A stretch of 64,000 bases of DNA. Origin: Escherichia coli. GTDB taxonomy: Bacteria; Pseudomonadota; Gammaproteobacteria; Enterobacterales; Enterobacteriaceae. The DNA is taken from the NCBI RefSeq assembly GCF_029227855.1, contig NZ_CP074357.1; one strand, 5' to 3'. How positions within the stretch are numbered: the first letter of the stretch is position 1; each line of letters begins with the position of its first letter. Of the stretch, positions 6,001 through 9,000 are shown piece by piece. The position numbers are program-made.

Positions 6001-9000
6001 CATTGTCCACGCCTTATGCCACGTGAGCCTTTCTGCTTTTCCCACCACTCCGGTGGTTTCCCTCTCTGTATGGTCGATTTTTAGGCACTGTTGCAAATAG
6101 TCGGTGGTGATAAACTTATCATCCCCTTTTGCTGATGGAGCTGCACATGAACCCATTCAAAGGCCGGCATTTTCAGCGTGACATCATTCTGTGGGCCGTA
6201 CGCTGGTACTGCAAATACGGCATCAGTTACCGTGAGCTGCAGGAGATGCTGGCTGAACGCGGAGTGAATGTCGATCACTCCACGATTTACCGCTGGGTTC
6301 AGCGTTATGCGCCTGAAATGGAAAAACGGCTGCGCTGGTACTGGCGTAACCCTTCCGATCTTTGCCCGTGGCACATGGATGAAAAGCCAAATCAGCGCCC
6401 AAAAGGTCTGCACTTGGATAAGCTGGAAACCTTGAATATTTTTGGTGTGCGCGCCAGCTATATGGCGGCATTTAAGGATTATCTGAAGGAAGAAGGTATC
6501 ACCCCAAGTGATGAGATCATCGAGCTAGACTTCCCGACTCAGCCAAACCTGCCGACCAAAAAATTAAAGACACTGGCGTTAAAGGATGGCTACAAAGACA
6601 ACCAAAAGTTGGGGTTTAAGCGTACCCACTATCCTTGGTTGTACGAAATCCCAGCCGAGTTTGACGGTAAGATAAAAACACCCGGGATCCTGCTCCTGGC
6701 TCTGCTCTCCTGTCTGCTGTTGCCCGCGCCGTCGCTGGGCCTGACGCTGGCGCAAAAGCTGGTTGAGACATTCCATATGATGGATCTCAACCAGCTTTAT
6801 ACGGTGTTGTTTTGTTTGTGGTTCTTAGCACTGGGCGCCATTGAGTATCTGGTGCTGCGCTGGGTGTGGCGTCGCTGGTTTTCGCTCGAACGCTAAACCA
6901 GGAAGGGCGCGCCTCAGTGGGCGCGACTGTGGTTCTCTTTACGGTAGGCGCCCGGCGGCAGATTGAAGGTCCGGGTGAAGACGCGGGTAAAGGTCTGTTG
7001 CGAATCGAAGCCATACTTCAGGCAGATATCGTAGACCCGCTGATCGGTGTCACGCAGATCGCGGGCGGCCAGCAGCAGCTTCCTTTCGCGAATATAGCGC
7101 CCCAGGCTCTCCCCTTTATACTGTAAAAACAGCCGTTGCAGATGCCATTTCGAATACCCGGCATGGCGAGCGATATCATCAATACGCAGCGGTTGATGCA
7201 GGTTGTCATCAATCCACTCGACGATAGTATCAATCACCTGAGCGGAAATCGTCATATGCTCTCTCCTCTGATACTGCACTGGCGCTTAGCGCCACCAGGC
7301 GTTAAATGATTGCGTCTTATCGGCGACCCACACCGGCTCGCCCTGCACAGGCGTCAGCAGACGCCAGGCCCTTCCTTCGCTGGCAGCCGCCAGCCGTTGA
7401 TACGGTTCATCCCAGCTGTGTTTCGCCAAAACGAATCGTCCTGCATGCCCAGGCAGCACCGCGCGAGCGCGCAGGTCGTCGGCGGCCTGAGCTGTTTCAT
7501 CCGGCATCATGTGAATATATTTCCAGTCCTGGTCATACTGCCCGTTCTCCATGATCGCCAGATCGACCGGACCAAATTCATCGCCTATCGCTTTAAAGTG
7601 CGGCCCATAGCCGCTGTCGCCGCTGTAATAAATCCCTAAATTCCACGTGTGTTTTTTATTAGCTTCAAAAATCACTATTTCACGAAGAATTTAGACTGCT
7701 TCTCACACATTGTAACATTATTTACAACCACCTTTCAATCATTTTTGATAAATCATTGATTTCATCTTTGCTGCAATGATACTTAATAAACTCTGCAAGT
7801 TATCCACAGAGCAGGAAAAGTTCGAAGCATTCTTCTTTCAGATGTTTCTAAACACTGGAAATTGAGAGATTTAGCTGATTATCTTTACATGAGCGAGAGC
7901 TTAATAAAGAAAAAGCTATTATTAGAAAACACTTCTTTCAGTAAAATATTACTTGATACTAGGATGTCGCTCGCCATTAAATTGTTAAAGCAAAATCATC
8001 CGATAAAATATGTGTCTGAAATGTGTGGGTTTAGTAGTACATCGTACTTTGTATGCCTTTTCAGACAATACTATGAGTGTACACCACGTAAATATCTAAA
8101 GCATTAGAGAACACCTGCCTTTACTTCCTTATTTTACCAATAATTTCAGCTAAGAGATTTTGATCTAAATGTTCGTTAATCGTTAAGCTTACTTCTGTAC
8201 ATGCCCTTATATAGATGTTCTGAACGGTGTTATTTCTGACAATGGACTTAAATGTCAGTAACGCCATTACACAGTTGGCCAACGCGAACAGCAGTATTGG
8301 TCGCAACAAAAAATGAAAGAAAAATCCCCCAAATGAAGGGAAAAAACGGAAGAACAGTCGAACGACAGGCACAAAAAAACCCGACTGGTAATCGGGCTTT
8401 TTCGTGTTTTCCAGTCCTGAGTTGGTGGCTCTGACTGGAGGAAGATACTCTACATCCAACATCCACAATATTATGGCACTAGACACCAGTTGTCTAGTTT
8501 GACTTCAGATTGTCTGTCAATGGCCATTTCTTTAAATGAATTTTATGCGTGCATCTGTATAATCTTTGCGTTGGCGCTGTACAGTGTGCCTCCCTTGCTT
8601 CTAAACCCTGCGCTATCTGGGTATGAACGAATTAAAGTCCTGGCTGAACAAACAGGTGGTGCTGTGTTCAGTGCTCTGGCAGGAGGAAGGTACTCTACAT
8701 CCAACAATGTGAGAGAGCCGTTGTGACAGGCGATGTATGAGCAAGCAACGGCGACTTCCTCCAGTATCAACCTGGAGAAACGGATGATTAACCTGTTAAT
8801 CATCGTTCTCAGGGCTGTGGTCGCCGTTGCAAACGCGCTGATTGCAGTTCTGGAACTGATCCGTCAGTTCATCGACTGATGACTGCGGAAACGTAACTAA
8901 GGGCAGGAAGTGCACCGCTTCCTGCCCTTTAACAAAGGAGGATTTATGGATTTTATGAGCATTTTGGGGCGCTGTTTACTTCTTCCTTTCCCTGTTGCGA

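Follow-up and report, generated by a model that had tools for sequence, protein, structure and literature searches.

The 64-kb window analysed here, the whole stretch of 64,000 nucleotides from Escherichia coli contig NZ_CP074357.1, contains two similar direct repeats close to an open reading frame (ORF) of 31 codons. The question raised by this locus is whether repeats and ORF are working parts of one genetic system or remnants of a degraded gene. A preliminary description had suggested a possible type I toxin-antitoxin system with an antisense RNA, and this was borne out by matches to the Rfam model RF02891 and the NCBIfam model NF041473 together with the pairing between AgrB and the leader of the toxin mRNA. 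We put the probability at about 0.92 that the locus represents a type I toxin-antitoxin module, an intact copy of agrB/dqlB from the DinQ family, and that this copy sits on an IncHI2 multidrug-resistance plasmid, in one of its accessory regions. Such a module consists of a small membrane-toxin gene curbed by an antisense RNA encoded next to it, and this one belongs to the family DinQ/AgrB, subfamily DqlB. It is an already-known system; the idea of the first description was right, and the family was known before. Here we present the parts, their complementarity and covariation and the family membership, all observed at this locus, together with a comparison with known relatives and a mechanism proposed by analogy.

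Repeats and the AgrB antisense RNA gene

The repeat search delivered a single repeat family with two copies of 48 nt (81% identity), 245 nt apart, which agrees with the two copies at about 245 bp and the shared core described earlier. Exactly two matches to the 25-nt core, GGAGGAAG(A/G)TACTCTACATCCAACA, are present in the 64-kb window (8437-8461 and 8682-8706), with none expected from 100 shuffles, and no third repeat copy was found in the window. Both copies are located upstream of the ORF; contrary to what had been claimed at first, they do not flank it. Neither copy is accessory or degraded: copy 1 belongs to the gene of the antitoxin RNA, read from the other strand, and copy 2 is the target in the toxin mRNA leader. 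AgrB does not overlap with its own target, and therefore the target in the dqlB leader and the DNA of the AgrB 5' end form a pair of direct repeats. The features of this part are as follows.

8414..8461, plus strand: repeat copy 1, its opposite strand encoding the 5' targeting segment of AgrB
8659..8706, plus strand: repeat copy 2, in the dqlB 5' UTR, with the AgrB target (8673-8704) and 'sequence 2' GGAGGAAG (8682-8689)
8468..8496, minus strand: predicted sigma-70-like agrB promoter, -35 TAGACA (8496-8491), 17-nt spacer, -10 TAATAT (8473-8468), 9/12 in the consensus scan
8372..8459, minus strand: AgrB antisense RNA (antitoxin) of about 88 nt, Rfam RF02891, 68.8 bits (gathering score 40)

The RF02891 match (E 5.5e-11) covers the whole model from position 1 to 84, and the agrB -10 box ends 7-9 nt ahead of its first position. 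The gene lies on the minus strand, divergent from dqlB, with about 110 nt between it and the dqlB +1 further downstream. The predicted RNA has a 5' end that is single-stranded, followed by stem-loop 1 and by an intrinsic terminator with its stem at 8396-8380 and its U-run at 8379-8373; the predicted fold has -33.1 kcal/mol (z -5.47). No Rfam family other than AgrB scored above its gathering score, neither in this region nor across all 64 kb. The Rfam and repeat searches revealed no agrA-like second antitoxin copy in the 64 kb; a single AgrB gene is present.

Nucleotides 1-32 of AgrB are complementary to 8673-8704, over 32 nt that include two G·U pairs and a single mismatch, and the predicted duplex between AgrB and the leader reaches -57.0 kcal/mol, versus -15.8±3.5 kcal/mol for shuffled AgrB. 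Covariation was analyzed in a set of 14 loci from IncHI2, X1, X3, X4, K2/Z, FIA, I1, N and L plus K-12 dinQ. Counts are based on the ungapped 24-pair alignment A3; the 32-pair chimeric alignment A2 was dropped because it introduced gaps for IncN and IncL. Compensatory (double) changes occur in 19 of the 24 AgrB:target pairs, and 94% of the cells are paired in the true register versus 42-47% with the partner slid; none of 500 shuffles attained the observed score. Where the cores differ, they do so in the direction that yields G·U pairs in the RNA duplex, in the window and, for the most part, in the other loci. Gene conversion, and not selection on RNA pairing, could in principle have maintained the identity between the repeat copies.

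Toxin gene, mRNA leader and proposed switch

Downstream of repeat copy 2 follow the toxin ORF and a 3' hairpin.

8784..8879 (stop included), plus strand: dqlB, 31-aa hydrophobic single-helix peptide, predicted toxin, sequence MINLLIIVLRAVVAVANALIAVLELIRQFID, NCBIfam NF041473
8899..8929, plus strand: 3' stem-loop with short U-tract, perfect 12-bp stem 8899-8910/8918-8929, homologous to the dinQ terminator SL9 (PMC5066626)

The ORF of 31 aa with its GGAG ribosome-binding site was recovered as described, with the Shine-Dalgarno (SD) sequence at 8774-8777, 6 nt ahead of the ATG. The search for homologous peptides that had been recommended returned the DqlB model NF041473 with 72.8 bits (cut-off 35) over residues 1-31 of 31; the DinQ model NF041472 scored 25.3, under its own cut-off of 30. 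The proposed kinship with TisB, ShoB and Ldr did not hold: DqlB and DinQ are the only NCBIfam matches at E<=1 and AgrB the only Rfam family above its gathering score, and no peptide or RNA model of TisB/IstR, ShoB/OhsC or Ldr/Rdl was matched. The identical sequence is present in RefSeq on IncHI2 plasmids as dqlB, WP_000609149.1. The ORF is under purifying selection: in comparison to 11 homologues, synonymous changes outnumber non-synonymous ones, for example by 14 to 5 in one case and by 4 to 0 in another. It represents the last 31 codons within a 48-codon ORF (8733-8879); a 48-codon product from the ATG at 8733 was rejected because the DqlB model spans residues 18-48 only and the SD precedes the ATG at 8784. 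Overlong N-terminal annotations of such toxins are common artefacts (PMC5066626).

Of the strong terminator hairpin reported downstream, the perfect 12-bp stem is present and shares the CCCTTTAAC tail with the dinQ terminator stem-loop. The hairpin is not a textbook intrinsic terminator, because only TTT follows and two T lie within the stem. With this 3-U tail, read-through into the next ORF is therefore possible.

The promoter and leader of dqlB contain the following elements.

8558..8563, plus strand: dqlB -10 box TATAAT, assigned by homology with the dinQ promoter (PMC5066626)
8570..8932, plus strand: predicted full-length (+1) dqlB mRNA, about 363 nt, +1 G8570 by homology with dinQ G1 (GTTAGC/GTTGGC)
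8570..8599, plus strand: 5' arm of the long stem S1, contains 'sequence 1', pairs with 8678-8705 in the full-length mRNA and covers the AgrB target/anti-anti-SD (RNAfold MFE of 8570-8810)
8755..8777, plus strand: 'sequence 3' CTTCCTCC (8755-8762) and SD hairpin CTCCAG (8759-8764)/CTGGAG (8772-8777), with the SD GGAG at 8774-8777

No consensus -35 is recognisable for dqlB, and the consensus scan missed this promoter. T8558, A8559, T8560 and T8563 are invariant across 12 aligned loci, TATAAT as a whole is invariant or nearly so, and GTT at +1 is conserved in the aligned loci; the +1 of K-12 dinQ was tied to the numbering of PMC5066626 via the U16-U19 run. There is no LexA-like match at the dqlB promoter, which reads CTGTATAATCTTTGCG versus CTGTATGATTATCCAG in K-12 dinQ, the dinQ LexA half-site CCAG being changed to TGCG. 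A CTG-N10-CAG motif, CTGGCTGAACAAACAG, is found at 8640-8655, inside the transcribed leader (+71 to +86). Part of it belongs to a stretch invariant across 12 of 12 aligned loci, an invariance that may reflect RNA structure.

The dql family and its four-element switch were defined in PMC5066626 (Kristiansen 2016). The elements of the dinQ switch are kept in the dqlB 5' UTR, among them the CTCCAG/CTGGAG hairpin at the SD and GGAGGAAG as anti-anti-SD, and the leader elements for the exclusive pairings 1:2, 2:3 and 3:4 (SD hairpin) are all present with complementarity. The closing pair of the SD hairpin is G:C here and U:A in the loci L003b and L010 and in K-12 dinQ, a compensatory change noted by eye. 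For the 2:3 duplex and the SD hairpin, the counting of covariation on alignment A1 was given up because MAFFT set these short elements out of register between clades. In the RNAfold structure of the +1 leader S1 is formed and the SD hairpin closed. The ensemble without the 5' end gives -63.6 for the 2:3 duplex versus -62.0 for the SD hairpin; for the +1 form it is the SD hairpin that comes out ahead (-80.0 versus -82.5), and the K-12 dinQ control shifts the same way. The predicted SD opening on processing is small, with a mean P(unpaired) rising from 0.01 to 0.05 versus 0.07 to 0.38 for dinQ, and varies with the 3' boundary chosen. Cofolding AgrB with the leader in silico restores the SD hairpin.

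By homology, the dqlB peptide would insert into the inner membrane and kill or arrest the cell. In the following scheme, the toxic action, the processing and the cleavage by RNase III are projected onto this locus from its homologues, and so are the half-lives of the RNAs and the stabilisation of the plasmid. The 5' end of the full-length mRNA would pair with the target region (S1), leaving CUUCCUCCAG free to form the hairpin over the SD, and the mRNA would be translationally inert. Processing of the 5' end near 8631 would strip the S1 arm, upon which GGAGGAAG (8682-8689) could pair with CUUCCUCC (8755-8762) and the SD would open. AgrB bound to 8673-8704 would sequester GGAGGAAG and bring back the SD hairpin, and the resulting duplex would be a substrate of RNase III. 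After loss of the plasmid the presumably unstable AgrB would decay and toxin would be made, leading to post-segregational killing.

Relatives and plasmid context

The closest studied plasmid systems, both validated in 2025, are agrB/dqlB of pOXA-48 (IncL) and of pOXA-484 (IncX3). According to the available part of PMC12365149, DqlB of pOXA-48 is toxic with ghost cells, agrB in trans rescues from this toxicity as well as from killing after plasmid loss, and a 4-nt pairing mutant of agrB is reported as having 'failed'. For pOXA-484, toxicity, neutralisation and plasmid stabilisation were shown in 2025 (PMC12317039). The module in the window shares with both the divergent agrB upstream, the 31-aa toxin, the SD context, the 3' stem-loop and, within the dqlB 5' UTR, a target that is about 30-35 nt long and lies about 70-80 nt 5' of the start codon. 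Its toxin is identical to the pOXA-48 toxin in 26 of 31 residues (5 of 31 differ) and in 28 of 31 to the IncX3 toxin of L010, which may not be that of pOXA-484; the spacing of the repeats is 245 nt, versus about 188-229 nt. AgrB passes the Rfam gathering score here, whereas the IncL and IncN AgrB genes stay below it. The setting is an IS-rich IncHI2 accessory region, and the module is not located between repA and trbC. The recognition sequence reads GGAGGAAGGTACTCTACATCCAA in the window versus GTGGGAACATCTAAACAATTGAC in IncL, and predicted cross-duplexes with other modules range from -22 to -38 kcal/mol versus -57 kcal/mol for the cognate one; by this prediction, neither the chromosomal agrB nor AgrB of IncX3, IncI1 or IncL would rescue from this dqlB. 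AgrB and target sequences may have diversified into mutually orthogonal specificity classes; if this is true, co-resident plasmid and chromosomal modules cannot cross-neutralise.

With dinQ-agrA/agrB of K-12 (Weel-Sneve 2013; PMC5066626) the locus shares the -10, the +1, the leader elements 1:2, 2:3 and 3:4, the hairpins at the SD and at the start codon, and the stem-loop of the terminator; the structure of AgrB corresponds as well. The toxin has 31 aa and an ATG start, in contrast to 27 aa and GTG in dinQ, and the leader 5' end is about 20 nt longer. K-12 dinQ has agrA and agrB, a LexA box at the promoter and a chromosomal site at arsR-gor, whereas the window holds one AgrB gene and no agrA paralogue. 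An assignment to dinQ proper was rejected on account of this single AgrB gene, the plasmid location and the promoter, where a LexA box is missing.

In hok/sok of plasmid R1, as proposed for agrB/dqlB, an inert full-length mRNA is activated by processing and the antisense RNA is unstable. The R1 system has no sequence kinship with agrB/dqlB. Sok is encoded in cis, within a gene that overlaps the leader of mok; AgrB acts in trans, from a repeat copy of its own. Activation is by 3' processing in the case of hok mRNA and would be by 5' processing in that of dqlB, which has no mok-like coupled reading frame. Both systems are plasmid-borne addiction modules of type I whose toxin is a small membrane peptide, a comparison drawn in PMC12365149.

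On the identical plasmid sequence, as annotated by RefSeq, the module is preceded by a truncated HTH-domain pseudogene and followed by the gene of a 59-aa hypothetical protein, in line with the position between a pseudogene fragment and a further small membrane protein gene noted before. The downstream ORF (8946-9125) is conserved and two-transmembrane, has a strong RBS and starts 16 nt past the hairpin with almost no U-tract; it has no Pfam or NCBIfam match. In the IncHI2/X1/X4/K2Z clade it might be the third gene of a unit, read through with dqlB and modulating the toxin, e.g. as membrane partner or immunity, but we consider this improbable, and the divergence into orthogonal classes the more probable of the two proposals.

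Alternative readings and significance

The 8100-9200 region is matched at 99% identity or more by 134 E. coli replicon records, and at least 5000 plasmid records, with nine replicon types, share the agrB/dqlB arrangement. The conserved arrangement argues against repeats left over from a duplicated or degraded gene next to a short ORF that arose by chance, the outcome named in the preliminary description as its refutation. Gene fragments are indeed nearby, and a 31-codon ORF alone is not significant, with 66 ORFs of at least 20 aa in 4.5 kb; the curated Rfam and NCBIfam matches for RNA and peptide, the covariation of the repeat copies and the purifying selection on the ORF nevertheless rule this reading out, with a residual chance that is negligible. 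A DinQ-like stress regulator, in which DNA damage would induce the toxin via LexA and modulate membrane-dependent functions as chromosomal dinQ does, is very improbable. The locus is homologous to dinQ, it contains the CTG-N10-CAG motif, and an identical 20-mer upstream of dqlB on pTF2 was scored as a possible LexA site (HI 11.64) in PMC12211044. However, the second half-site of the LexA box over the -10 is destroyed, so that dinQ-type control at the promoter was rejected and the motif is left only within the leader; DqlB was undetected in the proteomic analysis of PMC12211044, and the plasmid homologues tested act as addiction modules (PMC12317039, PMC12365149).

More weight, though still an unlikely reading, is due to an idle hitch-hiking or decaying copy in the IS26/ramAp mosaic, silent or redundant with other addiction systems and without a role in maintenance. 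The neighbourhood is a mosaic rich in IS26, with truncated genes for an HTH and an MBL-fold protein, with IS4321 and with a fragment of Tn3; the module may be a passenger and not a maintenance determinant of this plasmid. In PMC12137576, agrB/dqlB is listed beside ramAp among genes variable between IncHI2 plasmids, dqlB occurs in only 5.5% of IncHI plasmids according to PMC12365149, and a HipA-family toxin is encoded in the same 64 kb. Against an idle copy speak the full-model AgrB match with promoter and terminator, an ORF identical to the IncX1/X3 protein, and the preserved SD, -10 box and target pairing, all parts being intact. Decay can be seen in copy L003a, which has only 27 aa and AGAG as its SD; the copy in the window has no such signs.

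The agrB/dqlB module adds little new biology, because the family was defined in 2016, the plasmid addiction system was validated in 2025 and the exact sequence is already in RefSeq. Its practical use is in the annotation of such modules: AgrB genes were annotated in none of the 13 records fetched, and dqlB was absent from the annotation in several of them. The signature of a paired direct repeat 5' of a tiny ORF is a reliable spotter of trans-encoded type I modules. On the IncHI2 multidrug-resistance plasmid, agrB/dqlB represents one more candidate stability determinant, which bears on plasmid-curing strategies.

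Identity and plasmid setting of the module

The stretch 8372-8929 is supported as a type I toxin-antitoxin module of the DinQ/AgrB-DqlB family, a system (agrB/dqlB) that is already known. Matches to the AgrB and DqlB models uphold the type I character proposed in the preliminary description, whereas its comparison with TisB, ShoB and Ldr is corrected to this family. The principal features are listed below.

Features of the agrB/dqlB module and the adjoining open reading frame (ORF)
8372-8459, minus strand: AgrB RNA (RF02891), full-model match, 68.8 bits against a gathering score of 40
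8414-8461: repeat copy 1, encoding the 5' part of AgrB on the opposite strand
8496-8468, minus strand: predicted promoter-like site of agrB (TAGACA, 17 nt, TAATAT)
8558-8563: -10 box of dqlB (TATAAT), conserved among the 12 aligned loci
8570-8599: 5' arm of the leader, predicted to pair with 8678-8705
8659-8706: repeat copy 2, AgrB target in the dqlB leader
8682-8689: sequence 2, GGAGGAAG
8755-8762: sequence 3, CTTCCTCC
8759-8764/8772-8777: 3:4 hairpin over the Shine-Dalgarno sequence (SD), CTCCAG/CTGGAG
8774-8777: SD, GGAG
8784-8879, plus strand: dqlB ORF of 31 codons, the last 31 of a 48-codon ORF
8899-8910/8918-8929: 3' hairpin with a perfect 12-bp stem, followed by TTT only
8946-9125, plus strand: 59-aa ORF with two hydrophobic segments and a strong ribosome-binding site, AAAGGAGGA

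AgrB was the single significant match in an Rfam scan of 7500-10000, and across the entire 64-kb window no other Rfam family passed its gathering score; this predicted RNA agrees with the earlier suggestion of an antisense RNA. The gap between the agrB -10 element and the start of the AgrB model is 7-9 nt. In the predicted fold (-33.1 kcal/mol, z -5.47) about 20 nt at the 5' end stay open, nt 21-50 form a stem-loop, and the terminator ends in a U7 tail. The 31-codon ORF and its SD were correctly recognized at the outset, and the search for homologous peptides suggested there gave 72.8 bits (cut-off 35) to the NCBIfam equivalog NF041473, "DinQ-like type I toxin DqlB", and a weak 25.3 bits to the DinQ model, under its cut-off of 30. 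The 3' hairpin exists as described, but with so short a T-run it is a weak terminator, not a strong one.

The repeat search delivered one two-copy direct repeat of 48 nt per copy with 81% identity and a spacing of 245 nt. Both copies lie upstream of the ORF, so that "flanking" was inaccurate. The 25-nt core GGAGGAAG(A/G)TACTCTACATCCAACA occurs in the window only at 8437-8461 and 8682-8706, with up to three mismatches allowed, and shuffled sequence is expected to contain none. The two repeats are accounted for by the antitoxin gene and the target of that antitoxin: because AgrB is encoded on the opposite strand without overlapping dqlB, the DNA specifying the AgrB 5' part forms a direct repeat of the target.

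In complete E. coli genomes, BLAST found identical DNA on plasmids of 230-270 kb, for example pMTY18780-1_lncHI2, the ORF being dqlB (WP_000609149.1) in RefSeq. Over its first 25 kb, the window is 100% identical to such plasmids of Salmonella, E. coli and Enterobacter. The neighbourhood contains IS26, IS4321, a glutathione synthase gene and a RamA-family regulator gene, with truncated MBL-fold and HTH genes upstream of the module; downstream follow the 59-aa hypothetical gene and a gene for an OLD-like ATPase. The module lies, as first described, between a gene fragment and a gene for a putative small membrane protein. The plasmid-borne efflux regulator gene, "ramAp" (6914-7279, minus strand), stands among MBL-fold and DUF1158 gene fragments (4000-8107), in a segment bracketed by IS26 and IS4321 immediately upstream of the module; these fragments may resemble the Klebsiella chromosomal neighbours of ramA. 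On the minus strand, 9512-11413 encodes an AAA ATPase of 633 aa that contains an acidic D-run; a peptidase M14 gene adjoins it. Its best PADLOC matches are the Old, AriA and GajA models of OLD-family ATPase/TOPRIM nucleases, and it is possibly a plasmid anti-phage defence gene. The window has the same IncHI2 context in which agrB/dqlB, beside ramAp, is among the genes varying between plasmids (PMC12137576).

The toxin gene, its relatives and the downstream ORF

Twelve related loci were compared: IncX1/X3, IncX1 with two tandem modules, IncK2/Z, IncX4 (two loci), IncFIA, IncI1 (two loci, including R64), IncX3, IncN, IncL (pOXA-48-like) and K-12 dinQ. AgrB exceeds the Rfam gathering score in every one but IncN and IncL. 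These two still carry a direct-repeat pair (34 and 22 nt, spacing about 190 nt) of completely different sequence. Purifying selection on dqlB is seen in synonymous versus non-synonymous codon differences of 4 to 0 (IncX1/X3), 14 to 5 (pOXA-48) and 10 to 7 (IncN).

The study of pOXA-48 (IncL; PMC12365149) reports DqlB as toxic, resulting in ghost cells, with protection by agrB in trans, an assay of an agrB mutant with a 4-nt pairing change, zero transposon insertions recovered in agrB, and killing after plasmid loss that agrB rescues; dqlB homologues are given for 3310 of 15,775 typed plasmids and 5.5% of IncHI plasmids. Toxicity, neutralisation and plasmid stabilisation were demonstrated for pOXA-484 (IncX3; PMC12317039). 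The present toxin shares 26 of 31 residues with that of pOXA-48 and 28 of 31 with that of the IncX3 locus L010, which is not established as the pOXA-484 toxin. By analogy with these homologues, the copy in the window would be toxic.

The 59-aa ORF starts 16 nt past the dqlB 3' hairpin, which almost lacks a U-tract, and may be co-transcribed with dqlB by read-through. No family match was obtained in Pfam or NCBIfam searches. The ORF is present in 712 PLSDB plasmids. In IncHI2, K2/Z, X4 and X1 loci it stands directly 3' of dqlB, with 75-98% amino acid identity and an invariant N-terminal 25 aa; codon changes relative to the two diverged copies number 6-8 synonymous and 13-15 non-synonymous.

The dqlB leader

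The dqlB transcript is predicted to start at G8570, giving a full-length RNA of about 363 nt, because the GTT after the -10 box is conserved in an alignment of 12 loci that runs from the start of agrB through the dqlB terminator, and its K-12 counterpart is the dinQ +1, as verified with the U16-U19 run of PMC5066626. The dinQ LexA box CTGTATGATTATCCAG reads CTGTATAATCTTTGCG in the window, and the second half-site is thereby gone. At 8640-8655 (plus strand), CTGGCTGAACAAACAG departs from CTGT-N8-ACAG at one position; it would lie at +71 to +86, within the transcribed leader and off the promoter. The same 20-mer, upstream of dqlB on pTF2, was rated a possible LexA site with HI 11.64 (PMC12211044).

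Kristiansen et al. (PMC5066626), who defined the dql (dqlA/dqlB) family, showed that the +1 dinQ mRNA is inert: leader sequences 1 and 2 pair, so that sequence 3 can form a hairpin with the SD-containing sequence 4. Loss of the first 43 nt leads to 2:3 pairing and frees the SD; AgrB, on binding the sequence-2 region, recloses the SD hairpin and makes an RNase III substrate. All dinQ-type switch elements were found in the dqlB leader here. Predicted ensembles were -82.5 (SD hairpin) and -80.0 kcal/mol (2:3 duplex) for the +1 leader, and -62.0 and -63.6 kcal/mol for a leader starting at about 8631, the site homologous to dinQ U44. Processing thus reverses the order, in the direction of the K-12 control and as the model predicts, and cofolding with AgrB is predicted to restore the SD hairpin, whose closing G:C pair is U:A in IncX3-type loci and dinQ. 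Because the predicted rise in SD accessibility on processing is small (0.01 to 0.05; dinQ, 0.07 to 0.38) and the minimum free energy of the processed leader varies with the chosen 3' boundary, the putative switch is supported by its conserved parts and not by energetics.

Antitoxin-target recognition

Positions 8673-8704 pair with AgrB nt 1-32 with one mismatch, and two A-to-G differences between the repeat copies become U·G wobbles; the predicted duplex has -57.0 kcal/mol, against -15.8±3.5 for shuffled AgrB. The loop CCACC of AgrB stem-loop 1 (nt 32-36; 8428-8424, minus strand) is complementary to GGUGG in a leader hairpin loop (8655-8659), where GGTGGTGC is invariant in 12 of 12 aligned loci. 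The IncX3-type loop, UUACC, could still pair via G·U, and the two loops may make a kissing first contact.

In each locus the agrB repeat copy matches its own dqlB leader copy, while the sequence differs between loci. In an ungapped 24-pair chimeric alignment of 14 AgrB:target pairs, 94% of cells hold standard pairs (42-47% with the 3' partner slid), 19 of the 24 pairs show changes on both sides, and none of 500 shuffles reached the observed covariation score. Cognate duplexes (window and L002-L013, the related loci) are predicted at -41 to -62 kcal/mol and those between distant classes at -17 to -36; AgrB of the window (8459-8426) gives -33 with the K-12 dinQ target, and K-12 agrB -28 with the target of the window. 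The tandem modules of Salmonella IncX1 plasmid pBL708 (L003, 613-1107 and 1274-1763) differ in recognition sequence; the first looks decayed, with a toxin cut to 27 aa and the SD mutated to AGAG, and the second is intact. The modelled duplexes suggest that AgrB/target recognition sequences fall into orthogonal specificity classes, which in turn suggests insulation between co-resident modules.
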